Position numbers and translations under genes: made by a program | Part shown: in pieces, positions 10,060 through 46,351 of the stretch | Layout: the number at the start of each line of letters is the position of its first letter | Numbering within the stretch: the stretch's first letter is position 1 | Notes under the pieces: model-generated | Told to the model about the DNA's origin: nothing | What the model saw: only the letters and a program-made list of their open reading frames with translations | The model's database searches: none | Sequence record: NZ_CP118102.1 | Direction: 5' to 3' (one strand) | DNA from: a plasmid | DNA length: 64,000 bases

Positions 10060-10330
10060 CTCAAAATATGAGATAGGGTCTCTCAACATCTGATCCAAAC
10101 TCTCTCAAATCTTCAGAGAGGGCCTCTCAGTTATTGACTAGCGAATAGGCCTTTCAAAATTTGAAAGGCAGCTTCTCGAAAATTGAGAGGCGAGATTTAT
10201 TAGTTAAACCGCCTCTCAAAAATTGAGAGACGACGCTTTTCAAATTTTTATACCCCGCTACTCAAATTTTGAGAGGCGGCTTCTAAAAATTTGATAGTCG
10301 GCATTTCAGATTTTGAGAAGCGGACAATTA
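10060..10330. repeat. Array of about 9 degenerate 17-21-bp palindromes (consensus CTCTCAAAATTTGAGAG), spaced about 30 bp apart
   Basis: gcctttcaaaatttgaaaggc, cctctcaaaaattgagaga, ctactcaaattttgagagg and similar copies seen directly. Lies just 3' of the replication-initiator gene. Confidence 0.7.
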
Positions 10331-10361: not shown

Positions 10362-11348
10362 CTAATCTAACTGTACACAATCAAAGTGTATCTCGCTGAT
10401 ATCGCAGGCAAAAGGCAAGACAATTTGTAAAATCGTATCTTTATACCGTTCTCTTAGCCAATCCCTTGTAAAGGGGACTGGAGAGTATACTGTAAGCACT
10501 TGTCCTCGCTTAATAGCAAAAGTATTTTTAAACCAAGTATCGAAAGAAGGACGGGAAAGAGTTGTACTTATTCCACTTAATACTTGATCCCATAACTTTG
10601 TGTCTTCATCGGTACGCTCTTGTTCGAGTAAGCTTATCTTGTTGAGTGTTTCCTTTTCCAATTGCAGCACTGATTTTTCTTTACGTACTACAGTGCCATG
10701 TTTAACAACATCATCATAAATCTCTAAGTAGTCAACGGCTGGGTTCAGGTTGAGAAATTGATCAAAATTCGCAACAATCCCCTGCATGTACTTATCGTGA
10801 TCAAGTTTTAATTCAGTCGGAAGCTGCTCATAGAGCTCCTGGGGCAGGAAAGGGACCTGCTTACGAACCTTATAGAGGGGACTTTCCTCCATATTATTCA
10901 TGTCTGCATTCTGAACATTGAAGACAAGTACGAAACCATATCGCTCAAGAGTGCCTAAAAACTTTTTAATCGTATTCCGACTCTTGTTCATTTTCAAGCT
11001 AATTAGTTTGAGATCTGGCCAGCAGTAATCTTTATCCCCATAGCAGTAGCGTTTCAAATGAGCGTATAGAGCCACACCCTCAGCACCGAGAAAATGACTC
11101 CAATAGTCAAAGATATAATTGCTCAGAATAGTAACGTGACCATCTACATAGGGAATAGGCTGCCCGTGCTTGTCTAAGCTGAACTTACGCACATTATCTT
11201 CTGTAATATAGATTTTCTCTAATTCTTTTTCGGTGTAGATTTGTTCAACACCGTCGACTTTTCTCACTTTAGGTGTCTCTGTACCCGTTGGCCTATACCG
11301 ATAATACATTAACTTATGTTGTGTACCTTTTAGATTCTTGTTGATCAT
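10362..11348 (-). CDS. Putative replication initiator or replisome organiser: winged-helix N-terminal region plus a C-terminal domain resembling DnaA domain I
   Basis: C-terminal 'SFDTWFKNTFAIKRGQVLTVYSPVPFTRDWLRERYKDTILQIV' resembles DnaA_N. RBS AGAGGAG present. Confidence 0.55.
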   Translation of the reverse strand: MINKNLKGTQHKLMYYRYRPTGTETPKVRKVDGVEQIYTEKELEKIYITEDNVRKFSLDKHGQPIPYVDGHVTILSNYIFDYWSHFLGAEGVALYAHLKRYCYGDKDYCWPDLKLISLKMNKSRNTIKKFLGTLERYGFVLVFNVQNADMNNMEESPLYKVRKQVPFLPQELYEQLPTELKLDHDKYMQGIVANFDQFLNLNPAVDYLEIYDDVVKHGTVVRKEKSVLQLEKETLNKISLLEQERTDEDTKLWDQVLSGISTTLSRPSFDTWFKNTFAIKRGQVLTVYSPVPFTRDWLRERYKDTILQIVLPFACDISEIHFDCVQLD

Positions 11349-11761
11349 AAGAATACTCCTCTAACGCCCTATGAACAAAGCAGGTGACCTTCACAGAGTT
11401 TTGAGACTATGCTAAAATAGCCATAATCTAATTAATGTGAATGAAGTCCTTACTTCCTCACATTTACTGTCTTATGCTTGGCGGCCGCGGACAGCAAATG
11501 TTGACTAGAATGAGGGCTTTATTTTTTATGTAACAGTTATTGAATTCATTCTAATATATATATTAATATATTACCTTCAAAGTTCTACATATTTCCACTC
11601 CTTATTTTGTGACAGAAAAAGAAATTAAGAAGAATTGAAAAAAGCTATGTCGCATACTGTTTGTTTATTAATATTGTTTTGTTATTTAAAATGATTAACA
11701 AATTGATTGCTTGTTTACAGGTCTATGAATCTATTGAATTGACGGGCTTTCTAGCACTTTG

Positions 11762-11892
11762 CTGTCACAAGATAAGGAGTTAACAGTCACAACTTGGGGA
11801 GTATAGATGTCACAGTTAGAGGAGTAAAGTATCACATTTGTAGGAGTGAGCCGTCACAATAAAAGGAGTAGAGGTGTCACAATTAGAGGAGT
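11762..11892. repeat. Iteron array, minus orientation (6 copies of TGTCACAnnnnnnnGGAGT)
   Basis: Regularly spaced copies, about 22 bp apart, read directly from the sequence. Confidence 0.75.
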
Positions 11893-11998
11893 AGATATAG
11901 TAAAACTTCACCCAATTCGTTACCGATTATATATATACGAATGATTTCTTCTCTGATCTTGGTCTAGGTTGTTTCAAAGTGATACTGATATAAAATTT

Positions 11999-12435
11999 AC
12001 TCCTTTTATTGTGACAGTAAGGGTTGATTACTCCTAATTTTGTGACACTTGTGATTGGATACTCCCTACACTGTGACAGCTAGGAAATGATAATTATGAA
12101 AACAACTCCTTTATTTGTGACAGACAAAGGCCGATTCCTGCAAATTTGATGGCATACGTAAAGAAAGTCACCAGGTAATGTGTTTTACTCCTAAGTTTGT
12201 GACAGAAAGTAAATACTACTCCTTAAAATGTGATAGTTTGCTTTATTTACTCCTTTATTTGTGACAGCTAAGCGTATATGATTCAAAAAACTCCTCGTTA
12301 TGTGACAGAAAACTAGAAAGAGACTCCTCATTATGTGATAATTACGTTCTAGAAAGCATAAAAGCACTCTATTATAAGAAAGAAAATTCAACTCTTTAGC
12401 AATGTTCGGTTAAAAAACTCCTCTTTTTGTGACAG
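11999..12435. repeat. Iteron array, plus orientation (10 copies, consensus ACTCCTTTATTTGTGACAG), ending at the Rep_3 gene promoter/RBS
   Basis: Direct repeats seen. An AT-rich 100-bp spacer (11893-11998) separates the two opposed arrays. Probable theta-replication origin. Confidence 0.75.
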
Positions 12436-12542
12436 AAGTTCAGTTACTGAAGGAAGTTATTTACTTTTATCTGTCACATATAAAGGAGTGGAAAATCAGT
12501 AACCGGTTATTTATAGTAATTTTAAAGGGAGGGTTAAGAGAA

Positions 12543-13778
12543 ATGAAAGCAGAGCAGTTAGAATTCGACCTAGAACCAACATCTATTTCACCCGAGTACA
12601 TCGTTACGAAATCAAATGCATTGATCGAAATGCCTCTTAACCTGGACCTGCAGGAATCACGAGTAATCTATACACTTATATCCTTGATTCAACCAGACGA
12701 TGAGGATTTTAAAACTCATTTTGTTAAAGTGAAAGAATTTGCTGATATTCTAGATCTGCAGGAAAAGAACTTCTATAAGAAAATAAGAGAAGTTGTAACT
12801 GGGCTGCAGCGAAAAACACTCGTTATCCGTGAAAATAATGGGGAATCAGAGCTAGTGGTAAACTGGCTTTCCGCGTCTCGTTATCACCATCGGAAAGGTG
12901 TAGTTGAATTAGAGTTCTCGCCTCAGTTGAAGCCTTACCTACTGAAGCTTAAGAAGGACTTTACCCGATATAAATTAGCTAACGTTCTGGTCCTTAGAAG
13001 TAAATACTCGATTCGGATGTATGAACTGCTGAAACGTTATCTCAATTTTGGAAAGAGAAGGTTCACACTTGAGCAGCTTCGTAACTTACTCGAGATTGAA
13101 CCAGGCAAATTAACGCATTATGGACACCTAAAGCAGCGGGTACTTTTAAAAACACAAGAGGAGCTGGCTGAGAAGACCGATATTTCTTTTGATTTTGAGG
13201 AGACAAAAGTCGGACATAAGGTAGTCGCAATTACTTGTTACATAAAACAAAATCACCGTAAAAAGTTGCTGCAAAAGGATCCTGATTTATTTGAAGAAGG
13301 TGTCACAGCGATATCTTTATTGACTCGCTTCGGTGTAAGAAAGTCTGTTGCTGAAGACTTACTTAAAACATTTGGCGAAAAGAGAGTCAAAGCCAATATT
13401 CAGTATGTTTATGAGACTAAACAAGAGGCGAGCATTGACAATATAAGCGGTTATATGGTTAAAGCAATCCGGGAGGATTTTGTGAATAACGGAGCAGGAT
13501 ATGAGGAGGAAGATCTTTATGATTTTGAGACATCGATTCCTCATTTGAATGCCCGCTTGCGCCGGCTGATTGAAAATCATCAGGAAAAGATGGATCAGGC
13601 GAAAAAGTCTGAAGAGAAAAAAATGCGTAGTGACATGACTCAAGCGGTTGTTGATGAAATTCACAGAACACTTGAAATACGCAGGAGCCGAAATCTTCGG
13701 CCACTTGATCCGGAGGATTTTGAGCAGAAGTATGTACGAGAGCTGTATGAATACTTATTGGAGCACCCCTATGTATGA
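12543..13778 (+). CDS. Rep_3-family (RepB-like, iteron-binding) plasmid replication initiator
   Basis: 'SKYSIRMYELLKRYLNFGKRRFTLEQLRNLLEIEP...HLKQRVLLKTQEEL' is the Rep_3 signature. RBS AAAGGGAGGG. The upstream in-frame extension from 12429 covers the iterons and is rejected as the start. Confidence 0.75.
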   Translation: MKAEQLEFDLEPTSISPEYIVTKSNALIEMPLNLDLQESRVIYTLISLIQPDDEDFKTHFVKVKEFADILDLQEKNFYKKIREVVTGLQRKTLVIRENNGESELVVNWLSASRYHHRKGVVELEFSPQLKPYLLKLKKDFTRYKLANVLVLRSKYSIRMYELLKRYLNFGKRRFTLEQLRNLLEIEPGKLTHYGHLKQRVLLKTQEELAEKTDISFDFEETKVGHKVVAITCYIKQNHRKKLLQKDPDLFEEGVTAISLLTRFGVRKSVAEDLLKTFGEKRVKANIQYVYETKQEASIDNISGYMVKAIREDFVNNGAGYEEEDLYDFETSIPHLNARLRRLIENHQEKMDQAKKSEEKKMRSDMTQAVVDEIHRTLEIRRSRNLRPLDPEDFEQKYVRELYEYLLEHPYV

Positions 13779-14881
13779 TTGGGGTGCTTTTTCTTTCGAT
13801 TATTGCTTACAAAACCATGGATATCATTGATAATCTTGTCCTTAGCCTTGAGCCAAAGCTGAAGAGTGTTCCTTTCGTATCCATTGTCTTCGCAGTACTG
13901 TCTAAATTCCTTTTCTATCACAAATTGAGGAGTCACACTGGTAATATTCCTGAAGGGATCCAGGAAGCCACGAATCAGCAGGTATTCTTCAGGTCTCAGT
14001 CCGTTTATTACTTGTCCAAAGTTTTCAGTCTCAATAAGTTTTGATAAATACGGCACCGGCTGCCGGATTGATCCAATTCGAGTTTGAACATAATCAAGTG
14101 CAACAATAAAAGCATATTCTCCTTTTTGCAGCCACTTGGAATAGAGGTCCGGAGTAAGCTTGGCATCAATGAACTTTGTGAAAAGCTTGGCTTGATCCAA
14201 AAAGTAGTCCTGGTTGATATCCAGGTGAGCATGCGAGATGGAACGGGATAGTTGGATTTGCAAACTATTTATTCGATTTCCTGATTTTTGCTCGATGAAA
14301 TTTATCGACAAGCCAAGGAGAGATTTAATTTCTTCAGAAGCTGGCACCAGTATCCTTGCTTTAAAGTTAGCATAGCGTGGGTATTGATCATGTACATCTA
14401 ACATCTCTCTTAATTCTTCGATAGTAACAATATCACCGTTCCACACGCTGTCACGAACAAGAGTATACAATTTGATAGTAAAAGTACTTTTGGCTTTCAG
14501 CAGTAAGTTTATTTCATCGGTATTAAACATTTTGGCGAGTCTAAGAAACAGAATTTCTATGGCAGCATGCATCTTGAAGCTAATTACTTGGGATCTGCTA
14601 GGAATCTCGATATTTTCAATCAACCTTTTCTCGAATTCTAGAGACCGCTCTTGCACTAAGATTTCGGTTTCGGCCAGTTGGATAAAAGTCGATTTTAACT
14701 CTGTATATTTAATATTTTTATGGTTCATTCTCTCAGATAAATCGGAAAGTCTGATGACATATTGATGCAATGGAGAAATGTTCCAACGAATCAAGTCTGT
14801 AAGCCAAAGTAGAATCTTGATTTCAGTGAGGGTAAGTTTCTTTAATCGATTATTTGAGAACTTTTCAAAAAACATATACAT
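13769..14881 (-). CDS. Second Rep_3-family replication initiator, convergent with the first
   Basis: 'FTIKLYTLVRDSVWNGDIVTIEELREMLDVHDQYPRYANFKARILVPASEEI' matches the Rep_3 core. SD GAGGTGG before the ATG at 14881. Confidence 0.6.
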   Translation of the reverse strand: MYMFFEKFSNNRLKKLTLTEIKILLWLTDLIRWNISPLHQYVIRLSDLSERMNHKNIKYTELKSTFIQLAETEILVQERSLEFEKRLIENIEIPSRSQVISFKMHAAIEILFLRLAKMFNTDEINLLLKAKSTFTIKLYTLVRDSVWNGDIVTIEELREMLDVHDQYPRYANFKARILVPASEEIKSLLGLSINFIEQKSGNRINSLQIQLSRSISHAHLDINQDYFLDQAKLFTKFIDAKLTPDLYSKWLQKGEYAFIVALDYVQTRIGSIRQPVPYLSKLIETENFGQVINGLRPEEYLLIRGFLDPFRNITSVTPQFVIEKEFRQYCEDNGYERNTLQLWLKAKDKIINDIHGFVSNNRKKKHPNHT

Positions 14882-15174
14882 ATTCACCACCTCACTGGCT
14901 ATTATATCTAAACCTCAAACATTTTGATACTCGACCAGTAACTACATATTTGCGTCTTCCTGCCATAAATCTATGTAATATCCAGAAACTAATAAATGGT
15001 ATATTTTATGTATTGATAAATGTTATGTATATGTATTAATATTCTACTGCTTGCCATATATTACTCACTGAGTAATATGTTTCATAGTAAATTATATTTA
15101 ATAAAGGTTATGAATTAGCACAACATAAACACGATAAATATGGTAGGAAAAGATAAGTTTGGAGGTTTTTAAGA

Positions 15175-15599: not shown

Positions 15600-15876
15600 A
15601 TAATTACAAACATATAAATATCTTTTTTCTATTGATATTAAATGCTATAATCTAACCAACAGATATGTATTACATTAATTTTCTCTGCTGTCTTACATTT
15701 CGGTGGAGTGGGAGTAGCTGTATTAATGGCAAATAGATAGTTGGATTGCTGGTGCATGCGGTATAAGTATGTACTTTTTTTGCGTCCATTTTTGTGAGCT
15801 CATCGATAGATGAGCTCTTTTTTTATGCCCATAGGAGATTAAAAACAACAGGTTTCATAAAGAAAGGGGTTAATTC

Positions 15877-18851: not shown

Positions 18852-20546
18852 ATGCCTGAAAGAAAATTTGCGTTTTTATCCGCAATAACTATATTTATTT
18901 TCCTATTAACAAATCTATTTATCTTCTATAACATAAGTAAAAAGACCTTTTTAAATCATATGTCAAGTGACACGATGGTCATTTCAGAATATATTTCTTC
19001 TGATATAGACAAATTTAGCAGCACTATTAAGATCTCCGATGCGCTATTATCGGATTCTTTACGAAATGCAGCTATAGCAATACGCAATAGTCTACCGATA
19101 AAGTATAAAGATGTTACAAATGATCAGTTGAAGGATTTAGCGAGTCGTTTAGAGGTCAGTGTGATTTCATTAATTGCACTAGTAAAGGGGGATTATACTG
19201 TTGTACTCTCTTCAGATGCATCCCGGATAGGTAAGAAGTTAAGTGATTGTGATACATGTGATACTGCGATGTCCGATCCCTATTGGTCTGTTAAGCCACC
19301 TGTGCAGTCTATTAATTCTGAGACTCATCATAAACATGGTTATTACTATGAAGGAGAAGCGGATTATATTATCAATCCTTATGTAGATAATGGATATTAT
19401 TTTTTAGTTAATCAAGAGATGGACGTAGATACATACGTAAATAACATTCTCCAAGACCATAAGGGGGAATTACTTGATATAACCGCGTTGTTTTGGATTG
19501 ATGTTATCGAACCTTCTGTAAATAGAGAGCTAACTATGACTTCCCCTCTTAGAGGAACTAATCCTACAGAGGAGGATATATTTTTAGGATCAAACTCATT
19601 TGCGAGTTCTAGGGATATAGATCACATGCAAAGAGCTGCATTAACGGGGGATTATACAACTTATGAAGACGTAATAAACGGCCAACGTGTCATAAAAACT
19701 TTCTACCCAGGTGTCGTTGATGGATATACGTTTATTATTAGCATCACAGGCAACATGGAAATATCGAATCCGGTATTGAACAGTCTTATTTCTAAGTACG
19801 GGATTCTTTTAACAAAAGTAACGATCATAAGTCTATTATTCGGGTGGGCTGTACTGAAGTTGTCTAAATATCCAGGTCGTTCTGTTACGAATGAGCATGA
19901 AAAAGCTGAGGGTAATATCGATCATTTGTGGGTCGAGGTGAAAGGTCAACGGCATGACTTAAACAATCATTTGGATACCCTGCATGGTCTTATTGAACTT
20001 GGATTTTATAATGAGGCAAAAGAATATATCAATGAGATAGTTGAAGAGACATCAACTATCAACGAGATAATTGATATTGGGCAGCCGGAAATTGCAGTGT
20101 TAATTCTATCTAAGATGTCTCAGGCAACTGCTAAGAATATCGATTTTCAGTTTGAAATTCTAAATAAAACTGAATCAAAATTAGTTCTTTTAGGAAGTAG
20201 GAAAATGGACGTAGTAAAAATCCTCGGAAACCTATTGGATAACGCATTTGAGGAGGTGATGAAGTTAAGTCCAGATCAAAGACTGGTTGTGCTTAATGGA
20301 GAAATACGTAACGATGTATTCCGATTTTTTATAAAAAACAAATTGAGCCAACACCTATCTCCTGCCATGATTAAGCAAATGTTCCTTCCAAGAAAGACTA
20401 CAAAAAACAGCACTGGAATTGGGCTAAGCATTGTTAATGAGAGGGTAAAACGTAACGAAGGAAGCATTATTTGTCAGCTTACGGAAGAAGGTTTTATCCA
20501 GTTTAATGTGTTGCTACCGACGGAACAGAGTAAACTAAGGGAATAG
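18852..20546 (+). CDS. Sensor histidine kinase, AgrC/ComD-like (HPK10-type) kinase core, with a 2-TM, roughly 280-aa extracytoplasmic sensor domain
   Basis: 'RHDLNNHLDTLHGLIELGFYNEA' H-box. 'LLDNAFEEV' and 'GIGLSIVNERV' ATPase boxes. Two predicted TM segments. Confidence 0.7.
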   Translation: MPERKFAFLSAITIFIFLLTNLFIFYNISKKTFLNHMSSDTMVISEYISSDIDKFSSTIKISDALLSDSLRNAAIAIRNSLPIKYKDVTNDQLKDLASRLEVSVISLIALVKGDYTVVLSSDASRIGKKLSDCDTCDTAMSDPYWSVKPPVQSINSETHHKHGYYYEGEADYIINPYVDNGYYFLVNQEMDVDTYVNNILQDHKGELLDITALFWIDVIEPSVNRELTMTSPLRGTNPTEEDIFLGSNSFASSRDIDHMQRAALTGDYTTYEDVINGQRVIKTFYPGVVDGYTFIISITGNMEISNPVLNSLISKYGILLTKVTIISLLFGWAVLKLSKYPGRSVTNEHEKAEGNIDHLWVEVKGQRHDLNNHLDTLHGLIELGFYNEAKEYINEIVEETSTINEIIDIGQPEIAVLILSKMSQATAKNIDFQFEILNKTESKLVLLGSRKMDVVKILGNLLDNAFEEVMKLSPDQRLVVLNGEIRNDVFRFFIKNKLSQHLSPAMIKQMFLPRKTTKNSTGIGLSIVNERVKRNEGSIICQLTEEGFIQFNVLLPTEQSKLRE

Positions 20547-20562
20547 AGTAAGAGGTGCAAAA

Positions 20563-21366
20563 ATGGAAACAAATTTTACAATTATTATAGCTGAAGATGG
20601 AGTTGTCCAACGAGGAAAATTAAAATTATATGTCGAGAAGATGGGACATACCGTCGTAGACATGGTAAGTTCGGGTTCACGTTTGATTGAAAGCTGCGCA
20701 ATATACCGACCGGACATTGTTCTCCTTGATATCGGACTCGAGAAGCTGGATGGATTATCCGCATTTCGTATACTTCGAGAAAGCGGGAATAACTCAAAAA
20801 TGATCTTTGTGACGGGTTCTGGGAATCCTACACATCTTTTAGCGAGCTATGATTTGGATAGCATTGATTACATCCTGAAACCCGTAACCTTTGAACGCCT
20901 AAAAAAGGCGATAGATAAAGCTGTTATACAGTTGAGTGCAGAGAACATCTTAAGTACAAGACAGAATGAGGATGTAAACATGATCACTGTTATGTCTAAC
21001 AGACGTGATCTACTAGTAAACGAGAAAAAGATACTTTTCGTCGAGAAGATTAACGATACAAAATGGATAAAGATTCATCTCAAAGATGGAGAAATCATTG
21101 AAACAAGAACACCTTTAAAAAAAATATTGGATCAGACATCGAGGATTATTTTTTGTCCACATCGGAGTTTTCTCGTAAACATGTTGTGTGTGGAGGAGGT
21201 AAGGGCAGATCCAGTCACTAAAGGAAACTATCTGATCTCATTGCAGAATTCTGTTGCCGTTATCTTACTTTCTAGAAACCACTATGAAGAATTCTTACAA
21301 CGACAATCTGAACTGAAGAATAGGATGAACATTGATGGCTGGTTAAGCTTGCAGGGAACCAATTGA
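20563..21366 (+). CDS. LytTR-family response regulator
   Basis: Receiver domain (IIIAEDG...LLDIGLEKLDG). C-terminal LytTR DNA-binding domain (IHLKDGEIIETR...FCPHRSFLVN). Confidence 0.8.
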   Translation: METNFTIIIAEDGVVQRGKLKLYVEKMGHTVVDMVSSGSRLIESCAIYRPDIVLLDIGLEKLDGLSAFRILRESGNNSKMIFVTGSGNPTHLLASYDLDSIDYILKPVTFERLKKAIDKAVIQLSAENILSTRQNEDVNMITVMSNRRDLLVNEKKILFVEKINDTKWIKIHLKDGEIIETRTPLKKILDQTSRIIFCPHRSFLVNMLCVEEVRADPVTKGNYLISLQNSVAVILLSRNHYEEFLQRQSELKNRMNIDGWLSLQGTN

Positions 21367-21373
21367 ATTAATA

Positions 21374-21405
21374 TAATGATGGTATTACGATTTACCATTA
21401 TTTTT
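21374..21405 (+). terminator. Probable Rho-independent terminator
   Basis: aatgatggta...accattatt imperfect hairpin followed by a T-run. Confidence 0.4.
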
Positions 21406-21458
21406 CATCACCGCTATCATTTCGGTAGGTGAGCGAGTAACCCAATTTAGGGAACATA

Positions 21459-21540
21459 AATATGAGGCATGAATTGCCGTGGAGAACAAAGACACGCCAG
21501 AGGTGTGTTTTTTTGTTTCTTCACGGCTTTTTTTGTGCTT
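21459..21540 (+). promoter_or_regulatory. Conserved structured leader element, copy A: outer stem GCCGTG/CACGGC enclosing an intrinsic-terminator-like hairpin plus U7, then TTTTTGTGC
   Basis: Shares 'AATATGAGGC', GTGTGT-T7-G and 'CACGGCT-TTTTTGTGC' with the element at 43847-43930. The outer stem shows compensatory changes between the two copies. Confidence 0.5.
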
Positions 21541-21562
21541 AAAAACTGGGAGGAATTTAGAA

Positions 21563-22729
21563 ATGGCAAAAGCAGTGGAAGAACGTGTTACTACGGCAGT
21601 TAAGGCAGAGGGAGTATCGTTTACCGTTGATCATGAAGCGATTATGAACGTATTAACGACTTGTTCTAAGGTAGTGCCGAGAAGCAGCGTTGTTCCAATA
21701 CTGAAATGTATTAAGTTTGATTTAAACAAAGATGTTCTTTTCGTTACGGCAATGTCCGATTCCCAATCGGTTATTGTGAAACTGCAGGTAGAGAATACAG
21801 GAAATCAGGATGGGAGCTATCTATTTCCTTCAAGAGAAGGAATAGAACTTGTAAAACGTTTGCCAAGCGGTTCGCTATCGTTCAGTGTAAATGAGGCCTC
21901 TGTACGTATCTCGTACGGGAACAATGGTTCTGCATCGCTTAAGGTCTTGGATCCGGACGAGTATCCTCAGCTGCCGTCAGTGGCCGGAGTAAAGTTTGTG
22001 CCGGTTCCAATGGATGCCCTGCGAAAGGGTGCTGCAGCCCAGCGTTTTGCCTCAACTGATTCCAGTACTGCTATTCTCTGCGGTATTAATATCCGCAAAG
22101 TAGAGGATAAGCTTGGATTTACCGCGACGAATAGGCATCGGATATATGATTTCGTTTCTGACGTAAAGATACCAAATCCAGACGAGTTTCGTGGTGGAGT
22201 TATCGATGCTATAAATTTCAAAAGTATCGTAGATACTTTTAGAACCTCTGAAAGAATTGATTTTGCAGTGACGGATCATCATTTAATTTTAAGAGACCGT
22301 AGCAGCAATTCAGTGTACTTTGGTAGGCTAGTTGAGGGAAGTTATCCTGATATTGCGAAACTCTGTGAGATGCCTGAGCAGTCCTGTCTTGCAAGGATTC
22401 CGCTTGGGCGCCTCGACGAGACGTTGAACCGGATGTTATCGCTAGAATCCGAAAATCATCGTGTATATTTTTTACATGGAGATAACGGAGAGCTGGTTGT
22501 TAAATCGGAAAGCCACACAGGTGAGATTGTAGAGTCAATTGAAGGCTCCGTTGTAGATAAAAGTATGGGAATGATCAGGTTCAATGCTCGATATCTGAGG
22601 GATGCCCTTTCAGCCAGTGACCGGGATGTGAACGATGTTTTATTTAACATTACAGGTCAGAGTACTCCATCATATATTACGTATGATGGAGATCCATCGG
22701 TATTGAACGTTGTATTACCCGTGAGGTAA
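21563..22729 (+). CDS. dnaN-like: DnaN-like DNA polymerase III beta sliding-clamp homologue
   Basis: About 390 aa. N-terminal 'VSFTVDHEAIMNVLTTCSKVVPRSSVVPILKCIKFD' and 'LDPDEYPQLP' match the DnaN domain I-II pattern. RBS GGGAGG. Confidence 0.65.
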   Translation: MAKAVEERVTTAVKAEGVSFTVDHEAIMNVLTTCSKVVPRSSVVPILKCIKFDLNKDVLFVTAMSDSQSVIVKLQVENTGNQDGSYLFPSREGIELVKRLPSGSLSFSVNEASVRISYGNNGSASLKVLDPDEYPQLPSVAGVKFVPVPMDALRKGAAAQRFASTDSSTAILCGINIRKVEDKLGFTATNRHRIYDFVSDVKIPNPDEFRGGVIDAINFKSIVDTFRTSERIDFAVTDHHLILRDRSSNSVYFGRLVEGSYPDIAKLCEMPEQSCLARIPLGRLDETLNRMLSLESENHRVYFLHGDNGELVVKSESHTGEIVESIEGSVVDKSMGMIRFNARYLRDALSASDRDVNDVLFNITGQSTPSYITYDGDPSVLNVVLPVR

Positions 22730-24516: not shown

Positions 24517-26777
24517 GTGAATCTTCAGAAATAAGCAATGTGGTGATTGAGGCAATTGACCCTGCTCTGGAAGAGAAAAAGGTTTCCTCTCTTTCCGATG
24601 TGGAATCTATTGGGGATTATTTAGGGTTATTTGGAGCAGACCTGATTAGACGTCTTAACGATGAATATGTACCAGTTCATCATCCAGGTCAAAATAAACC
24701 ACTCCAGTTGTTAGAGAACCTTAAGCGTCCATTATTTCAAGCACAAGCTCACGTCGTAACTGCATTAATTAAGGGGTTTCAGCGTCATCGTAATCTCTTA
24801 GTTATTGGTGAGCCTGGAACAGGGAAAACATCCGTCTCTATCTCAGTTTTTTATTCCCTAATCACAGAATTACTCCAGAAAAAATCTGGACGGGTTCTTT
24901 ATATGGTCCCAAATCATCTGATAAAGAAGACGAAGCGGGAATGGGGTATTCTGCTAGATAAGGATCTGTTTGAGGTTCACTTTCTATCAGACTATATTGA
25001 CGTTATCAAGCTCCGAGATAGCAGAAGATTGGAGACGAAACCTAAAAAAATTGAGGTTTACATCATTGCAAGGGATACTGCTAAACTAGGTTATATTTAC
25101 GAACCGGTTGCACATTGGTCGGACCGTACATATCAGCAGCAGTTTCAAAACAATGATGGGACAGTTCGAACTGTTGAAAAGGTTGCTTTTCGCGGATGGA
25201 GATGCCCCGATTGTGGTGGACAATTAATGAAAGAGAAAGAGGACAGTCTTGTACCGATGGAGTATGAGGACTTTTTTAATAAGCATGGAAAGCCTACGCG
25301 TAGAAAAACGAACTTGTACTGTTCTAATCAAGTACGCCTCTATAAAAATGTAGATCCCGACAAGGACGAGACCCGTATTTGTGGGTCAAGACTTTGGCAG
25401 GCGAAGAATTCGAAAAAATCATATATATCTGGTAAGCCGAAACCGGTTGCTGGGGTGGCGCCACGAAAAGTATCTCCTGCGGATTTGTTTAAGCGTTGGT
25501 TTAAAGGCAAATTTGACCTGGCCATCGGTGACGAATGCCATGAGTTAGCAGGAGGGAGCGCTCAAGCTCATGCTTTTCATGTATTTTTGAATTGTGCCAA
25601 ACGAGGGATCGCAATGACCGGAACTTTGTCCAATGGTTATGCTTCTTCCTTATTCGAATTGTTTTTCCGGATGTTTCCCTCTCGTCTGAAGCAGATGGGC
25701 TTTAATTGGGGAGACGTAGGAAAGTGGGTCGATTTGTACGGTGTACGGGAAAGGGTCACTAAAATACGTGATGACGGAGATTTGAACAGCTCTAGTAACG
25801 GGAAGTCGAAAAGGACAAGTGTTAAGGAGTTGCCGGCTGCCGCACCGCAGCTCTTCACGGACATACTCAGTGACGTTGCAGTTTTTATACAGATGGCTGA
25901 TATGTTCGAAGTCCTGCCGGAACTCAAAGAAGGACCGATGAGTGTTCCTCTTGAGGGTGAAAGAAGACTTATAAGCTGCAAAACCCAAATTGTTCGACGA
26001 CCAGGTAGAAAGAGAAAGATTGAAAAGAAAATGAGGTTACTTGCGCCGGATTGGTATCTCAGAAAAAATCTGACTGAAGTCGAAAATCGTCTGCGAGAAG
26101 CTGTGCAAAAAGAGCTCGCTGCAGGTGGCCAGTCGGTACTTCTAGGGAGCCTTGTGAATACACTTTTGAGTTATTCAGATGTCCCTTTCAATTTCGAAGG
26201 TGTCCTTCATCCGGATACAGGAGAATGCATAGTGTCGGATAGTTACCGGCTTAGTGAGCGCCTATTATATCCTAAGGAGCTTCAGATGATCAAGTTTGTC
26301 CGATCGCAGCTAAAGCTCGGGCGAAGGGTAGGCATTTATGCGACTTATACGGGGAAAATGGGTACTCTGCAGCGACTCTCTCAGTTACTTGAAGAAAGAG
26401 GGATAAAGACAGCCCTACTTGGAACAGAGGTAAAGGGACCAGATCGAGAAGAGTGGATTGCCGAAAGGGTAAGGGAAGGTGCTCAGGTAATACTGACGAA
26501 TCCAATCCTGGTCAGCACTGGCCTTGATTTATTGATGTTTCCTTCACTTTATTTCTATCAGACTGGGCACCGTCTGAATATTGTGCGGCAGGCATCAAGA
26601 CGGCATTGGCGGATAGGTCAGCCGAATAAATGTCTTACTGTTTACAACTCATATCAGGGGACAATGCAGGAGCTGGCCATTAATCTTATGGCAGCCAAAA
26701 TGAGCGCTGCCCAAGCCTTAGAAGGGGTACCGCCAACAAAACGCGGAAAACGTACGCTAAGCCCATTAATTGAGTAA
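24513..26777 (+). CDS. SNF2-family helicase, 3' end interrupted by the transposon (last 17 codons are read from the transposon inverted repeat)
   Basis: GEPGTGKT (motif I), DECHE (motif II), MTGTLSNGYASSLFELF (SNF2 motif III), QASRRHWRIGQ (motif VI). Internal CxxC...C zinc ribbon. The native reading frame continues at 33881. Confidence 0.7.
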   Translation: MSESSEISNVVIEAIDPALEEKKVSSLSDVESIGDYLGLFGADLIRRLNDEYVPVHHPGQNKPLQLLENLKRPLFQAQAHVVTALIKGFQRHRNLLVIGEPGTGKTSVSISVFYSLITELLQKKSGRVLYMVPNHLIKKTKREWGILLDKDLFEVHFLSDYIDVIKLRDSRRLETKPKKIEVYIIARDTAKLGYIYEPVAHWSDRTYQQQFQNNDGTVRTVEKVAFRGWRCPDCGGQLMKEKEDSLVPMEYEDFFNKHGKPTRRKTNLYCSNQVRLYKNVDPDKDETRICGSRLWQAKNSKKSYISGKPKPVAGVAPRKVSPADLFKRWFKGKFDLAIGDECHELAGGSAQAHAFHVFLNCAKRGIAMTGTLSNGYASSLFELFFRMFPSRLKQMGFNWGDVGKWVDLYGVRERVTKIRDDGDLNSSSNGKSKRTSVKELPAAAPQLFTDILSDVAVFIQMADMFEVLPELKEGPMSVPLEGERRLISCKTQIVRRPGRKRKIEKKMRLLAPDWYLRKNLTEVENRLREAVQKELAAGGQSVLLGSLVNTLLSYSDVPFNFEGVLHPDTGECIVSDSYRLSERLLYPKELQMIKFVRSQLKLGRRVGIYATYTGKMGTLQRLSQLLEERGIKTALLGTEVKGPDREEWIAERVREGAQVILTNPILVSTGLDLLMFPSLYFYQTGHRLNIVRQASRRHWRIGQPNKCLTVYNSYQGTMQELAINLMAAKMSAAQALEGVPPTKRGKRTLSPLIE
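26724..26761. repeat. Tn3-family terminal inverted repeat, left copy (GGGGTACCGCCAACAAAACGCGGAAAACGTACGCTAAG)
   Basis: Perfect 38-bp reverse complement of 33838-33875. Flanked by TAGAA. Confidence 0.9.
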
Positions 26778-26839: not shown

Positions 26840-29797
26840 TCAGTAGAGAGGTTTCTTTAATGGCCGTAACGACGTTAGAGTTGTTGCTTGTTTTAGATCA
26901 AACTTGTACTCCCCTAGAAAATTAATATGTTCCCATCCTAGAGGTGAGGTATGTTGCATTAGTTCTTCTTTAAACGTTCCTTGGGTCTTTTTATATTCTG
27001 TTGCATGAGACAAATAGACAGTATTCCATACGCTGATTGCATTAATCAAAATGTTCAAGGCGCTGGCTCGTTGGAGTTGATCTTGCAGTGCGCGCTCCCG
27101 TAACTCCCCGTGTTTACCGAAGAAAATCGCTCTGGCCAGTGCGTTCATAGCCTCACCTTTATTCAGCCCCCTATGAATCTTCCGGCGCAGGGCTTCGCTT
27201 GATATGTAATCCAGAATAAAGATTGTCTTTTCAATGCGCCCCATTTCACGTAGAGCGGTTGCTAAGCGATTCTGCCGCGAGTAGGAACCGATCTTCCCCA
27301 TGATAAGTGATGCAGATACTGTCCCTTCTCGAATAGAATGGGCTAGCCGCAGCACATCATCATAATTTTCCTGAATGACCTTCGTATTGATTTGACCACG
27401 CAGCAGTTTCTCCAGTTTTGGGAAATCAGTAGGCTTCCCGATGATGTAAAGCTTAGAATCAGAAAGATCTCGTAAGCGCGGCGCAAATCTGAATCCGAGT
27501 AGTTGAGTCAAACCAAAAACTTGATCTGTATATCCTGCAGTGTCCGTATAATGTTCTTCGATGGTCAAGTCAGTTTCATGATGAAGTAGTCCATCGATCA
27601 CATGAACAGCATCCCTAGCATTCGTGTTAATCACTTTAGAATAGAAGCTTGAAAATTGATCACTGACAAAACGATAAATGGTTGCGCCCTTGCCAGTTCC
27701 GTAGTGCGGATTAGCATCCGCATGAAGCGCAGCTACGCCAATCGGCACCCTCATTCCGTCTGACGAAGACGTGGTGCCATCGCCCCAATAGGAGGGCAAA
27801 GATAACTTGTGGTGGAAGTTGACGAGGACAGCTTGAGCTTTATTCATTGCATCCTCATATAGCCGCCATTGTGCCGTATTGGCCATTTGCCGGTATGAAA
27901 TATCCGGCGTGGCATCCCCCATCTTGGTCAATCCAATGTTCGTTCCCATCGCCATCAGTGTTGCCATGAGAATTAACGTTTCTTCTTCATTGGGAATCCG
28001 ATTTGTTGAAGCATGGATAAATTGTTCATGAAAACCAGTCCAATGCGCTACCTCCATTAAGACCTCAGTCAATTTAATACGTGGAAGTAGTTCGTACAAG
28101 GATGAGCTAAAATTTCTGGCATCCTCCGGAGTATCTTTCTCTAGGCGGCTAATGTGAAGTTTTCCTTGCTCAAAGTTAATACCTTCTAGATCCTCAATGT
28201 TATTCGAAACCCATTCTAAGCGCTGTATCAGAGATGCGGTACGTTCGGCTAGGTAATCGCTCGCAGTCATGCTAACTACCAATTTTGTTTCATCAGGCTG
28301 AATACGGCTCCATTCATCTTTGGAGACAAGATACTCATCAAAATCTTTATGCTGCCGGCTCCCGACAATGGACACATCACCGGAGCGAACATAATTACGC
28401 AGCTCAGTTATTACAGCCATTTCGTAATAATGACGGTTAATCGTTCCGTCATCATCGTAGACATGCTTTTGCCAACGATTTGTTACAAAATTTAAGGGTG
28501 CGTCTTTTGGTACTTTACGTTTACCAGTTTCATTAATGTCCCTTATAACATCAATAGCCTTCATAAGTGGCTCTGCGGATTTATTAGAACGGAATTCCAA
28601 CGTTTTCAGCAGTGTTGGTGTATATTTGCGCAGCGTGTAAAACTTCTTCTCCAGCAAATCCAAATAGTCGTAATCAATGGGACGGGCCAGTCGCTTTGCT
28701 TCCTCTACAGATGCGACGAGCTGATCCCAGGGCATTACCGTCTCCAACGCAATAAATGGGTCTATGCCTTCGTCCCTAGCTTTTATGAGTGCTGCGCCAA
28801 GATCAGCATAATGAACCACCTTTTCGTTAATCGATTTTCCATTTTGTTTTTGGATTTCTTCTTGAGCCTTACGGCCTTTGGAATGTAGCTGTAATATCTG
28901 ACGGTCGTGAATTTCAAATGCTTGATCCGTTAAATCTTGTGTTAGATCGAGTAAATAAGCAACTAAAGTAGCATATTTCTTGGGGTCATCGAAACGACGG
29001 AAGGACTGCGGTTCATACCTTGCCCCGATTTTGGAGAGCTGACGTAATCGGTTTGGATGAATTCCCTTTGTATCGATTTGAAGCTGGACTTTTCGTATAT
29101 ATTCAAGTTTTTCAATGATCTTAAGGAAAGCATCCGGGGAACAGGTGCCTGGTACTTCTCTTAGCCATGCCAGATACGTTTTGTTGCTCTCCGGCATTGG
29201 GGATAGGATGTTTTCAAGTTTATCGACCTGCTCCACTGATAAGGAAGAAATAAGCATTTTATATATTTTCTCCTCGGCCCGTTGCCTCACTTCCCACACA
29301 ACCCGTTCGATTGTAGTCATCCCAGGTATAATGATTTTCTGTTTTCGTAATTCATCAAGGGCTACACGGATTAAATACATGGAGTTACCATTTTCTAACG
29401 AAAAATTCAGCATGATATTGGATAAGAACCGATATTCACGAAGCGTGAAGTTCCGATACCCATAGGTTTGCCGAATCTCCTCCATATGTTCTCGTCTAGT
29501 CGGTTCCCGTTGGGCATAAAGGGGAAATACATCAGGTGCCACGCCAACCTGCTTGGCAATGTAGCTTATTACAGAATCCGGTATGTGTTTCAAATCAGAT
29601 AAAGACCATCCTGGATAACGCAGGATGGCCAATTGAACGGCAAAGCCTAATCGGTTATGATCACGGCGATGTTTATTGATGATATCGAGATCGTGTTGCG
29701 AAAATGTATAGTACGTACCTAAATCCCAATCGTCGTCTGAAGGGATTTGCATAAATTCTGCGCGCTGATCTAATGTTAATAATTCCTTTCCTCTCAA
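26840..29797 (-). CDS. tnpA: Tn3-family DDE transposase
   Basis: 985 aa. N-terminal 'DWDLGTYYTFSQHDLDIINKHRRDHNRLGFAVQLAILRYPGW' is typical of Tn3-family TnpA. Confidence 0.9.
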   Translation of the reverse strand: MRGKELLTLDQRAEFMQIPSDDDWDLGTYYTFSQHDLDIINKHRRDHNRLGFAVQLAILRYPGWSLSDLKHIPDSVISYIAKQVGVAPDVFPLYAQREPTRREHMEEIRQTYGYRNFTLREYRFLSNIMLNFSLENGNSMYLIRVALDELRKQKIIIPGMTTIERVVWEVRQRAEEKIYKMLISSLSVEQVDKLENILSPMPESNKTYLAWLREVPGTCSPDAFLKIIEKLEYIRKVQLQIDTKGIHPNRLRQLSKIGARYEPQSFRRFDDPKKYATLVAYLLDLTQDLTDQAFEIHDRQILQLHSKGRKAQEEIQKQNGKSINEKVVHYADLGAALIKARDEGIDPFIALETVMPWDQLVASVEEAKRLARPIDYDYLDLLEKKFYTLRKYTPTLLKTLEFRSNKSAEPLMKAIDVIRDINETGKRKVPKDAPLNFVTNRWQKHVYDDDGTINRHYYEMAVITELRNYVRSGDVSIVGSRQHKDFDEYLVSKDEWSRIQPDETKLVVSMTASDYLAERTASLIQRLEWVSNNIEDLEGINFEQGKLHISRLEKDTPEDARNFSSSLYELLPRIKLTEVLMEVAHWTGFHEQFIHASTNRIPNEEETLILMATLMAMGTNIGLTKMGDATPDISYRQMANTAQWRLYEDAMNKAQAVLVNFHHKLSLPSYWGDGTTSSSDGMRVPIGVAALHADANPHYGTGKGATIYRFVSDQFSSFYSKVINTNARDAVHVIDGLLHHETDLTIEEHYTDTAGYTDQVFGLTQLLGFRFAPRLRDLSDSKLYIIGKPTDFPKLEKLLRGQINTKVIQENYDDVLRLAHSIREGTVSASLIMGKIGSYSRQNRLATALREMGRIEKTIFILDYISSEALRRKIHRGLNKGEAMNALARAIFFGKHGELRERALQDQLQRASALNILINAISVWNTVYLSHATEYKKTQGTFKEELMQHTSPLGWEHINFLGEYKFDLKQATTLTSLRPLKKPLY

Positions 29798-37980: not shown

Positions 37981-38643
37981 ATGGACGAGCTGAATTACCC
38001 AGATGTTGTTCGGAGGCTAAAGGAGTCATTTCCAGAAGGAACAGTCAAGCTGCGATCCGACACACAAAAAGCGTATATTCCGAATCAGATATATACTGAC
38101 AGGCTGGAAGCTGCAACGGAGGGGCAGTGGAGCAAAACCATTAAAGATATCGAAATCAATTTAGAGCAGCAGTACGTCAAGGTTATAGTTTCGATTTCTA
38201 TAAGTGATTACACCAGAGATGGATTCGGATTTGCTTATATTGATAAGGATGGCCAGGGACGTCCGAGAGTCTCCAACGCACTTGATCAGGCTGCCGCCAG
38301 CGCTTTTGTTGAAGCGGTAGATAGTTGGCAAATGGGATGGAAGGATCTTGCTCCATATAAGGATTGGGGAGATAATCCAGCTTTGCGTCATCTTATAGGC
38401 AGTGATCCTGCTCCAGAAGGACAGAAACGAGTTGTCCAATCCAAATCAAGGGTTGAACGAAATTGTATAATGACAGGCTGCGGAAAATCATTATCAGCTG
38501 ATGAATGGGAGCTGCTCAAACAAGTTCCGAATCTCAACCGCGATAAAATGGTTTATTGCTTTGATCATCTCCCAGATCATTTAAAGCGGAAAATCCCTGA
38601 TAAAAAACTAGAAGCATTCTTACAACATCGAGAATCAGAATAA
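37981..38643 (+). CDS. Possible Rad52/Sak-like single-strand annealing protein with a C-terminal zinc finger
   Basis: 'RDGFGFAYID...ALDQAAASAFVEAVDSW' loosely matches the Rad52-family core. 'CIMTGCG...CFDHL' motif. Low certainty. Confidence 0.3.
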   Translation: MDELNYPDVVRRLKESFPEGTVKLRSDTQKAYIPNQIYTDRLEAATEGQWSKTIKDIEINLEQQYVKVIVSISISDYTRDGFGFAYIDKDGQGRPRVSNALDQAAASAFVEAVDSWQMGWKDLAPYKDWGDNPALRHLIGSDPAPEGQKRVVQSKSRVERNCIMTGCGKSLSADEWELLKQVPNLNRDKMVYCFDHLPDHLKRKIPDKKLEAFLQHRESE

Positions 38644-43507: not shown

Positions 43508-43846
43508 AGGCTTGGAAGAAATGTTTTTGAGCATTACGTTATATACAGTAGTAGCGAACATCAAATAAAGCAAAGTCGGTAAGTAGATAAAGAAGGGGGA
43601 ATTTTGGAAACAATCTCGAAGGATTACTTAAGGTCAGCATAAATAAGGTTCAGCCGTTTGGGGAAGGGTGAGACACACCTTTCTCCATCCTTAAAACTAA
43701 CTGCTCATTTATAAGGCGTATAGTTTACACCGTAGAGCTTCACTCAGGTTGAATCATATGCTATACTTACTTCATTATTAGTACTTAATGTTTTTCTTTG
43801 CCGCTATAGTTCGGTAAAGATAGGGGAAACGGTATTATACCGTCAA

Positions 43847-43930
43847 AATATGAGGCTACCTATTAGCCGTTGGAAACAGGAGACAACCTTTGGTGTGTCT
43901 TTTTTTGTTTTCAACGGCTATTTTTGTGCC
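43847..43930 (+). promoter_or_regulatory. Conserved structured leader element, copy B: outer stem AGCCGTTG/CAACGGCT enclosing a hairpin plus U7, then TTTTTGTGC
   Basis: Homologous to the element at 21459-21540 with compensatory outer-stem changes. Sits immediately upstream of the ORF at 43950. Confidence 0.5.
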
Positions 43931-43949
43931 TAATTGAGGAGGAATAAAA

Positions 43950-44291
43950 ATGCGTATTAACATGAACACTCTTAAGCAAATCCTGCCCTGTCTACCAGAT
44001 GGACAAACCACCTCAAAAACACTATCAGTTGGAATCTTCCGTGCTATTGAGGCTGCCCATGAATTGGTTGATAGCAGTGAAGTTGACTGGAATTCGTTTA
44101 CGCTTGCGGAAGCTGAAGAAGCTTTAGATCATGCTATGGCGTACGAGTGCGATGAACACATCGAGCATGGGGATTATGCCAACATCAACAGTGGTAATGC
44201 AATTCACGAATACCTGCATAGTCATAATCTCATATTTCAGTTGAAGCGGTCTGCTCCTGAAAAACAGACAGCCGCAATTCAATTCTTTTGA
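43950..44291 (+). CDS. Hypothetical protein
   Basis: ORF with RBS GAGGAGG, downstream of leader copy B. Confidence 0.4.
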   Translation: MRINMNTLKQILPCLPDGQTTSKTLSVGIFRAIEAAHELVDSSEVDWNSFTLAEAEEALDHAMAYECDEHIEHGDYANINSGNAIHEYLHSHNLIFQLKRSAPEKQTAAIQFF

Positions 44292-46323: not shown

Positions 46324-46351
46324 GGAAAAAAAGGGGAGCCGTGGGGGCTCC
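46324..46351 (-). terminator. Rho-independent terminator for the minus-strand ABC operon
   Basis: gggagcc-cccac-ggctccc hairpin followed by a T-run on the minus strand. Confidence 0.6.

Follow-up and report, generated by a model that had tools for sequence, protein, structure and literature searches.

The window analyzed in this study, a 64,000-nt stretch of the plasmid record NZ_CP118102.1, carries immediately upstream of a DnaN-like gene a cassette of ~230 bp that combines a strong promoter with a folded leader RNA of ~175 nt having an unusually long terminator. A preliminary description of this DNA had reported a conserved structured leader with compensatory base changes in front of this gene and of an open reading frame (ORF) at 43950. 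The window was found to contain exactly three copies of the cassette, all on the plus strand, which are designated A (21343-21568), B (43732-43951), and C (~15643-15830). A local alignment of A with B covered ~165 nt (21401-21565 and 43791-43952), and a wider multiple alignment extended their similarity to ~230 bp. The element outlined previously corresponded to the 3' half only of this unit, which starts ~115 nt further 5', at the promoter, and includes two more covarying hairpins.

The promoter of copy A comprises a -35 element, TTGCAG (21349-21354), a 17-bp spacer, and a -10 element, TATAAT (21372-21377), at the conserved position, and overlaps the stop codon (21366) of the gene for a LytTR regulator. 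The motif ATTACGA (21384-21390), located at a fixed distance from the -10 element and followed 7 nt on by a degenerate second nTnAC, marks the predicted 5' end of the leader. Then come the covariation-supported hairpin P0 (21404-21433; TTCATCACCG/CGGTAGGTGAG with a U-rich 9-nt loop), a purine box, GAGCGAG (21431-21437), and hairpin P1 (21439-21452; ACCC/GGG), which is likewise supported by covariation and whose counterparts in other copies read ACCG/CGGT, ACGGTAT/ATACCGT, CGGCAA/TTGCCG, and GTCCG/CGGAC. The 5' strand of a further helix, P3 (GAGGCATGA, 21465-21473), forms part of the AATATGAGGC box (21459-21468) and pairs with 21532-21540. It precedes the long hairpin P2 (21476-21527; dG -29.7 kcal/mol), of which the outer stem GCCGTGGAGAAC/GTTTCTTCACGGC encloses an inner hairpin, AAGACACGCC-AGA-GGTGTGTTT (21489-21511), with its own T-run to 21515; a terminator scan matched at 21488-21512. 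The outer U-tract, TTTTTTT (21528-21534), runs into the 3' strand of P3, TTGTGCTT (21533-21540; the TTTTTGTGCT box of the preliminary description), a pairing supported by duplex energies. The ribosome-binding site (RBS), GGGAGG (21548-21553), is followed by the ATG of the DnaN-like gene at 21563, which is also the annotated start in a plasmid of Paenibacillus urinalis.

Copy B shares the same architecture (fold energy -56.7 kcal/mol). Its promoter, TTCACT-17 bp-TGCTATACT (43739-43767), was recognized by the promoter scan and the family alignment, and its leader (43774-43942) begins with ATTATTA and leads to the ORF start at 43950. P0 (CTTTGCCG/CGGTAAAG) was assigned to 43794-43822, P1 (ACGGTAT/ATACCGT) to 43829-43843, P2 to 43866-43918 with its inner hairpin at 43880-43901, P3 to AGGC (43853-43856) paired with GCCT (43928-43931), the U-tract to 43919-43925, and the RBS to 43936-43942. 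The motifs listed in the preliminary description all proved to be in place, namely AATATGAGGC at 21459-21468 and 43849-43856, TTTTTGTGC(T/C)T after the stem, the outer stems GCCGTGG.../...CACGGC of A (21476-21527) and GCCGTTGG.../...CAACGGC of B (43866-43918), the inner hairpin GACACGCC-AGA-GGTGTGT with its T-run (21489-21515), and the RBSs and start codons of both copies. The two boxes AATATGAGGC and GTGC(T/C)T are not the independent motifs they had been taken for, being the two strands of P3, which closes over the terminator and its U-tract.

Copy C (15643-15830) is of a divergent, two-terminator type. An extended -10 element, TGCTATAAT (15643-15651), is followed by P0 (15683-15708), a first long hairpin (15743-15787) enclosing an inner hairpin (15751-15775) plus T7, a second hairpin (15796-15817) plus T7, and an ATGCCC box, upstream of a primase (toprim) gene starting at 15877. 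Both of its terminators were found by the terminator scan. The preliminary description had pointed to a weak relative in front of the primase gene, and this turned out to be a genuine divergent member: a hidden Markov model (HMM) built without C detected it (nhmmer E=0.0015; covariance model E=0.15), and orthologous two-terminator copies precede the corresponding gene in replicons of P. sonchi, P. gansuensis, and P. rhizovicinus (L140:15263, L132:2541, and L008:10362).

To survey the distribution of the cassette, several searches were combined. With an HMM built from the first five sequences, seven different operons of the P. rhizovicinus plasmid were each found to be preceded by a copy; the totals came to 7 copies on the near-identical P. 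urinalis plasmid CP118110 and 8 on the P. rhizovicinus plasmid CP048287. A genome scan with a DnaN alignment yielded five relevant loci, in P. provencensis (identical), P. gansuensis, P. melissococcoides, P. ihuae, and Paenibacillus sp. LHD-117, and a DnaN tblastn search in PLSDB added plasmids of Thermobacillus composti, P. sonchi, P. peoriae, and P. polymyxa. Eight dnaN-type leaders, including A and excluding B, served to construct a covariance model, R1 (176 positions, 44 pairs). R1 detected B with 68.3 bits (E=2e-12), found 30 sense-strand copies in ~630 kb of related replicons, and gave zero matches in 701 kb of unrelated control contigs. The likeness of A and B is thus far beyond chance, as had been claimed, and where the preliminary description had allowed for there being no further copies and no covariation, the covariance-model search yielded 30 copies, and covariation was seen in alignments of up to 24 of them. 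The family comprises at least 30 copies on large Paenibacillaceae plasmids, and every copy lies on the sense strand immediately 5' of an RBS.

Blastn searches of copies A, B, and C against PLSDB matched only large Paenibacillus plasmids, with 100% identity to two P. urinalis plasmids and 71-86% identity to plasmids of Paenibacillus sp. Cedars, P. lautus, and P. rhizovicinus, and the three copies had no match in a phage collection. A pattern for the inner hairpin retrieved one true contig, Thermobacillus-like in look, from metagenomes and no contig from the viral scan, and a short pattern of 14 bases gave at least 120 matches, which were random. The known range therefore amounts to the one metagenome contig and roughly twelve plasmids or contigs from PLSDB and the GTDB species genomes. 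A lineage-specific protein of the transfer operon is common to the same eight PLSDB records, and judging from these searches the cassette family appears to be confined to one lineage of Paenibacillaceae plasmids.

The genes led by the cassette were then compared. On NZ_CP118110.1, four more cassettes lie outside the region shared with the window (L155:14519-14695, 26040-26200, and 38141-38302; L156:12687-12850), in front of a DUF4258 gene, a Mom-family (XF1762)/methylase operon, a PAPS-reductase/LPD1/Spo0E operon, and a second PAPS-reductase operon, respectively; the end of the PAPS-reductase/LPD1/Spo0E operon corresponds to positions 17-1720 of the window. The cassette-led operons of the family encode DnaN, primase, helicases, orphan methylases, a Mom-like protein, PAPS-reductase-like and LPD1 proteins, products of RadC-region genes, and others. 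The notion of a shared promoter-plus-leader module that ties operons together was therefore borne out, and its restriction to two operons was not, since at least seven such operons occur on the source plasmid and the family as a whole has at least 30 copies.

In the alignment of 28 copies, the promoter was shown to be of the sigma-A type, with a -35 element of the form TTGnnn or TTnACn at 17-bp spacing and a -10 element whose distance to the start motif was exactly 6 nt in all but three of the 28 copies (25/28). The -10 element was a perfect TATAAT (6/6) in 18/28 copies and carried the TGn extension in 19/28. Neither the region upstream of the -35 element nor the spacer contained a conserved motif. 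The 5' motif, A(U/A)UACGA with a degenerate second nUnAC 7 nt on, provides the highest-information unpaired columns of the alignment, and from its position we infer that A(U/A)UAC represents the 5' end of the RNA and the start of transcription. It is followed by UUUUC, P0 (9 bp with a U-rich loop), a GGAG-like purine box, P1, an A-rich linker, the composite hairpin, AAAAC, and the RBS. Measured in 16 leaders, the length between the motif and the RBS was 164-184 nt. In the composite hairpin, the inner hairpin and its U-run are nested within an outer stem followed by U6-8 (P2); the outer stem is GC-rich, an A-rich segment within the hairpin pairs with the inner U-run, and the apical (inner) hairpin is conserved in sequence as ACAYRCC/GGYRUGU. 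The 5' strand of P3 lies within an AUGAGGC box, and its 3' strand is the GUGC(U/C)U box. The columns of the U-runs are nearly invariant across copies. In the divergent subgroup to which copy C belongs, located 5' of primase and DUF6094 genes, P3 gives way to a second hairpin plus U7. A further arrangement was seen in the P. peoriae copies (L141:8700-8790 and 7160-7250), in which a different GC-rich structure of ~60 nt (CCCGGTCAGGGGAACGTAAAA..ACGTCCCCGTCTGAC..GGGGAC) lies between the first terminator and the RBS.

The structure was assessed by counting paired alignment cells and pairs with changes on both sides. Pairing was kept in 86.9% of cells in both the 16- and the 24-sequence alignment as against 42-54% in slid controls of the 24 sequences, the observed percentage being inflated because the alignments were fitted to the model structure, an effect which the slid and shuffled controls lessen and do not remove and which counts against the reading favored below. 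Pairs with changes on both sides numbered 35 of 44 (16 sequences) and 41 of 44 (24 sequences) versus 16-23 in slid or register-shifted controls, double-change cells numbered 103 and 188 versus 26-48 in slid controls, and none of 500 shuffles reached the observed values with either set. Among the individual helices, P0 and P2 had the best support (92-96% paired in the overall comparison). P0 was paired in 91-96% of cells with all 9 pairs covarying on both sides, P1 in 80% (double changes in 5/5 pairs), and P2 in 92% (20/22 pairs). P3 was the weakest, with 69% of cells paired and double changes in 7/8 pairs, and its cognate strands gave a duplex energy of -8.6 kcal/mol versus -6.3 for non-cognate and -3.9±2.2 for shuffled strands. 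RNAalifold on a plain MAFFT alignment recovered only the core of P0, because indels misalign P1 and P2, a problem that was overcome by bootstrapping the covariance model from the dnaN subgroup. Taken with their controls, these values argue that the covariation signal is real, and the compensatory change first noted between A and B is general to the family.

The strand on which the structure acts was indicated by two further measures. G·U or U·G cells outnumbered A·C or C·A cells 78:16 overall (~5:1), with 20:4 in P0, 25:1 in the outer and 26:8 in the inner part of P2, and 63:9 given for P2 as a whole. In addition, the sense strand folded on average 12.3 kcal/mol better than the antisense strand, and did so in 28 of 30 copies. 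The G·U excess and the stability of the sense fold thus indicate that the structure is selected on the sense strand, in keeping with the functional RNA helix proposed earlier, and this fold, the fixed promoter, the invariant U-runs, and the fixed RBS together point to a transcribed leader RNA. The scan of the whole window against Rfam 15, a check that had been suggested, gave 0 matches at the gathering score, and permissive scans of A and B returned chance-level matches alone (E>0.5, far under the cut-offs). The leader is a structured RNA family that is uncatalogued in Rfam.

The composite hairpin has the sequence features of an intrinsic terminator, that is, a stable GC-containing stem-loop followed by a U-run. 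P2 has a stem of ~22 bp and a dG of -21 to -32 kcal/mol, and at least 5 U follow it directly in 16/16 leaders, whereas the stem of a typical Bacillus terminator measures 9±2 bp (PMC10325885). The preliminary view of an inner hairpin plus U-tract nested in a longer helix was thus accurate, and the longer helix in turn leads into a U-run. In several copies, the preceding operon has a terminator of its own just 5' of the cassette promoter, which suggests that the leader terminator is dedicated to the cassette's own transcripts and hence follows the logic of attenuation or antitermination rather than of operon-end termination. Moreover, P3 pairs across the termination point, which implies that the read-through transcript is under selection and that the leader would act in cis. 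The occurrence of the same cassette before many replication and establishment operons likewise suggests a co-regulated plasmid regulon.

On these grounds, and with moderate confidence, we favor the reading of the cassette as a terminator-gated cis-regulatory leader, working by attenuation or antitermination, that defines a plasmid regulon; it probably gates genes for plasmid replication and anti-restriction. In the proposed course of events, the strong sigma-A-type promoter, often with an extended -10 element, would start the RNA at A(U/A)UAC, the first ~75 nt of which would fold into hairpins P0 and P1 with the purine box in between. The polymerase would next transcribe the nested intrinsic terminator, ~22 bp in all and then U6-8, which ends ~20 nt 5' of the RBS, and in some copies a second terminator. 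By default most transcripts would stop at the leader terminator, and expression of the downstream operon would require read-through, which may be controlled via the conserved 5' domain, the apical hairpin, or both. Control would come from a trans-acting factor common to the copies, or from some property of the polymerase during elongation, rather than from a self-contained RNA switch. In the read-through RNA, the segment after the U-tract would pair back to the segment before the hairpin, and the resulting P3 would give a hairpin of ~35 bp that buries the U-tract beside a free RBS. The likely recognition surface for a shared input comprises the conserved unpaired 5' motif, the hairpins P0 and P1 with the purine box between them, and the apical hairpin. 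Within this reading a specific trans-acting antiterminator has, in our estimation, less than an even chance.

Several points weigh against the terminator-gated reading. The promoter consensus and spacing, the sense-strand RNA structure with its covariation, the anatomy of the terminator, the multi-copy distribution, and the gene context are observed, and from sequence and comparative structure we infer the transcription start, termination, read-through, regulation, and any factor. The leader terminators look strong, which is a difficulty for any downstream expression. P3 forms only after the termination decision and therefore cannot itself regulate termination. No alternative antiterminator pairing is conserved: the 5' strand of P0 was tried against the 5' arm of P2, the 3' strand of P0 against the 3' arm of P2, and the 5' end and the linker against each P2 arm, and the cognate duplexes were no better than non-cognate or shuffled ones, while the positive controls P0 and P2 separated clearly in the same duplex test. 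The first genes behind the different copies are mutually unrelated. No NusG-, ANTAR-, or CAT-type protein was found among the plasmid proteins that were annotated or Pfam-scanned, and a conserved GAF protein lacks an ANTAR domain. The same set of proteins contained no Q-, RfaH/LoaP-, or ConAn1-type domain, with many hypothetical proteins remaining and a host factor being possible.

A number of specific mechanisms were considered and rejected. A classical alternative-hairpin attenuator or riboswitch platform failed the cognate versus non-cognate duplex test. An antiterminator or anti-antiterminator formed by P0 and the P2 base, which look alike with strands swapped, gave equal duplex energies for cognate and non-cognate strands. 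A pseudoknot joining the loop of P0 to the AAAUAUGA box occurs in some copies, inconsistently and no better than in shuffles, and the same was true of a pairing between the 5' AUUACGA and the GUAAU linker, which was inconsistent among copies and no better than shuffles. As for a leader peptide, ORFs run through the terminator from ATGAGG to TAA in A (21462-21542, 26 codons, MRHELPW...FFCA) and B (43850-43933, 27 codons, MRLPISRW...YFCA). The start codon or frame of this ORF is lost in relatives, its ATG being absent from the P. rhizovicinus and P. lautus copies; leader ORFs were inconsistent in position and length, and 5 of 19 leaders had no ORF of at least 15 codons. TTTACC-18-TATCAT was discarded as a promoter, since its -10 element falls in the P0 loop and a better-conserved promoter lies upstream. 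No antisense RNA gene, promoter, or complementary locus was found on the plasmids, all minus-strand matches being the palindromic hairpins themselves. In the absence of an alternative pairing, a leader ORF, and an antisense partner, a self-contained RNA switch is unlikely. Of the attenuator suggested in the preliminary description, the terminator-gated leader is retained, a classical alternative antiterminator hairpin was not supported, and a leader peptide is ruled out.

A more ambitious form of the terminator-gated reading takes the cassette as the receptor of an undescribed plasmid-wide RNA-level switch, by which one antitermination input would act on 7-8 identical leaders, at their conserved 5' domain or their apical hairpin. 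We regard this as possible, though doubtful. Just as tentatively, its input might be an RNA-binding protein or a factor-independent, put-like polymerase-modifying RNA, with the outcome of a post-entry burst of anti-restriction, methylase, and replication genes.

The alternative that survives best, which we nevertheless consider unlikely, is a constitutive leader without any switch, in which a leaky terminator tunes a strong promoter down and P2/P3 serve as an insulator, a 5' stabilizer, or an RNase III site. Neither an alternative pairing nor a factor was found, as would be expected of such a leader, and the covariation of P3 means that the structure of the read-through RNA matters. Stems of more than 14 bp resist conAn antitermination in pLS20 (PMC10325885), and that of P2 measures ~22 bp. 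This explanation, however, leaves unaccounted for the conserved 5' motif, P0, purine box, and P1 at fixed distances in all copies, and the apical hairpin that is conserved in its sequence and not merely in its pairing. The insulation that it would offer against upstream, possibly antitermination-modified, transcription is an equally unlikely role: copy A has no other terminator between the upstream two-component operon and the cassette, but many copies already possess a separate upstream terminator, which would make an insulator 3' of the cassette's own promoter redundant.

It is considerably less probable that the cassettes are genes for trans-acting small RNAs of ~120-150 nt, acting as decoys or regulators, with the downstream genes adjacent by accident. 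The cassette does have the anatomy of a small RNA gene, with its promoter, structured RNA, and intrinsic terminator, and many strong promoters would be expected to yield abundant short RNAs. Against this, essentially all copies end at a constant distance of ~20 nt from an RBS, a P3 that pairs across the termination point would be meaningless for a terminated small RNA, and the plasmids carry no complementary target or antisense locus elsewhere.

A function of the cassette as single-stranded DNA at conjugative entry, either as sso-like priming sites or as Frpo-like promoters for leading-region genes, seems very improbable. It draws on the Tcp-like transfer operon of these plasmids, which the copies follow directly, on one strand and before anti-restriction-type genes; on the fact that the transferred strand of pLS20 is the non-template (sense) strand (PMC8708921), which would make sense-strand hairpins possible in the entering DNA; and on the tolerance of DNA for G·T pairs. 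A Frpo-type element, however, must fold on the template strand, whereas the wobble asymmetry (78 versus 16) indicates folding of the sense strand, an objection that applies to Frpo and not to a sense-strand sso; by inspection, no -35/-10 pair is created in the stems. The T-runs after both hairpins and the canonical promoter and RBS at fixed distances are features of an RNA leader and not of an sso.

Equally remote is the proposal that the palindromes and ATTACGA are double-strand DNA operators for a plasmid repressor of the GerE/LuxR or PadR helix-turn-helix type, giving transient expression like EGeRS2/Reg576: strong promoters before establishment genes fit a repressor model (PMC8708921), ATTACGA occupies the predicted positions +1 to +7, so that an operator there would prevent initiation, and small GerE- and PadR-type helix-turn-helix proteins, which are DNA binders, are conserved on the plasmids, but the stems vary while staying complementary, even the apical hairpin has many more G·U than A·C cells (26:8), which is a signature of RNA, no conserved motif lies 5' of the -35 element or in the spacer, and the Reg operator is absent from the cassettes. 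A repressor bound at ATTACGA could coexist with the RNA mechanism.

The cassette was compared with known systems. Gram-positive conjugative plasmids are known to carry regulatory sequences repeated in front of several establishment operons, as well as leaders that work through a terminator (PMC8708921, PMC13401043), which provides a precedent for the terminator-gated reading. The EGeRS of the pLS20-family Bacillus plasmids are, like the cassette, repeated immediately 5' of the RBS of several operons, in their case an establishment and anti-restriction regulon (PMC8708921), and the cassette agrees with the EGeRS concept in being one sequence directly 5' of the RBS of several establishment-type operons, with a gene repertoire that is similar as well. 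EGeRS2 are repressor-controlled strong promoters, and EGeRS1 are long structured promoter-less blocks that stop read-through (PMC8708921). The cassette shares the strong sigma-A promoter with EGeRS2, and with EGeRS1 the wealth of inverted repeats and the expectation of stopping read-through in one orientation only (PMC8708921). In contrast, EGeRS1 measures 420-750 bp, is GC-rich, and has no promoter, whereas the cassette is AT-rich, measures ~230 bp, and consists of promoter, leader, and nested terminator, and the EGeRS2 promoter is flanked by the Reg dual-heptamer operators (TTATCCCnnTTATCCC; PMC8708921), which are absent from the cassettes. As the blastn search of PLSDB found only Paenibacillus plasmids, there is no sequence relationship to EGeRS.

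The attenuator cATTpLS20, located 5' of conAn1, has in common with the cassette small upstream hairpins, a long imperfect stem that can be extended by its flanks, and a terminator before the first RBS (PMC13401043). In cATTpLS20, however, one strand of an upstream hairpin is complementary to the 5' strand of a separate terminator further downstream, and their pairing extends the central long stem, keeps that terminator from forming, and thereby creates an antiterminator (PMC13401043), whereas the long hairpin of the cassette itself bears the U-tracts and its P3 extension forms only after the terminator has been passed. Furthermore, cATTpLS20 is a single-copy leader of 456 nt preceding conAn1 (PMC13401043), and the cassette is multi-copy. 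The cassette also departs from a zipper attenuator in that the 3' partner of P3 lies after the U-tract, with no further terminator in A and B, and in that its copies are situated beyond the transfer operon, ahead of the dnaN, primase, methylase, and further operons. No relative of conAn1 was identified on these plasmids, the small first protein of the transfer operon having relatives only in this plasmid family. The cassette may thus be regarded as analogous in function to EGeRS and the zipper attenuator and unrelated to them in sequence.

In lambda PR'-tR'/Q, put (HK022), EAR, and conAn2, the polymerase is modified to read through terminators. Like the cassette, these systems comprise a constitutive promoter, a conserved promoter-proximal element (in the cassette A(U/A)UAC plus two hairpins), and then one or two strong terminators before the genes (put, EAR: PMC8191782); they differ in having one or two loading sites per element versus the 7-8 of the cassette, which shows no similarity to EAR or Rfam families. 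TerR of pLS20 resembles P2 in being an intrinsic terminator on a conjugative plasmid with a stem far above 9±2 bp, but its perfect 15-bp stem ends an operon, whereas P2 is an imperfect nested stem of ~22 bp in a 5' leader after its own promoter (PMC10325885).

The gene order of the window from position 1 to ~44.6 kb is that of the P. urinalis plasmid NZ_CP118110.1, and the cassette therefore resides on the plasmid backbone, which contains rep genes, iterons, and genes for primase, DnaN, and helicases, with a Tcp-like transfer operon elsewhere on the replicon. What had been called an island is thus the backbone of a large conjugative-type plasmid and not a chromosomal island. On the P. urinalis plasmid, the first cassette comes straight after this transfer operon. 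Three replication-initiator genes (10362-11348, minus strand; 12429-13778, plus strand; 13769-14890, minus strand) are flanked by two iteron arrays (10140-10322 and 11585-12440), one with 22-bp units and the other with ACTCCTnnnnnTTGTGACAG repeated at least 10 times over the two strands, and this assembly presumably represents the origin of the plasmid. A GHKL histidine kinase and REC-LytTR response regulator pair (18852-21366) lies directly 5' of copy A. The pair is also found in the Cedars plasmid and not beside dnaN in the other plasmids; since it is not universal, it is unlikely to be a general regulator of the cassettes.

Between 26724 and 34500, a minus-strand gene for a Tn3-family transposase (26840-29797) and its cargo split a DEAD/DEAH helicase gene that is uninterrupted in the P. 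urinalis plasmid. A Tn3-type end of 38 nt (GGGGTACCGCC...GCTAAG) lies at 26724-26761, and a second one, in direct orientation and 92% identical to the first, at 46052-46089. Beside the latter begins a stretch, ~46000-64000, that lies outside the P. urinalis plasmid backbone, in which the GC content rises from about 38-42% to 53-64% and for which megablast found no match in PLSDB. Three long tandem repeats were recorded at 44654-45438 and 54582-55116, namely a 93-nt unit (x2.5) and a 132-nt unit (x4, 96% identical) within a minus-strand ORF (44477-45799), and a 50-nt unit (10.7 copies) in the GC-rich part.

The way in which large conjugative plasmids coordinate their dozens of establishment, anti-defense, and replication genes, and silence them in donors, is only now being worked out in Gram-positive bacteria. 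The narrow known distribution of the cassette limits its general impact. If the plasmid-wide switch considered above were true, it would represent a third, RNA-termination-based control of establishment regulons in Gram-positive conjugative plasmids, beside the repressor-based EGeRS2 and the unexplained EGeRS1. The cassette offers a compact entry point, defined by sequence, to such a regulon in Paenibacillaceae plasmids. The covariance model lists the operons of the regulon directly, including many genes without an assigned function, which are likely anti-defense candidates, and if read-through is indeed regulated, the cassette would offer a tractable system for a new antitermination factor or mechanism.

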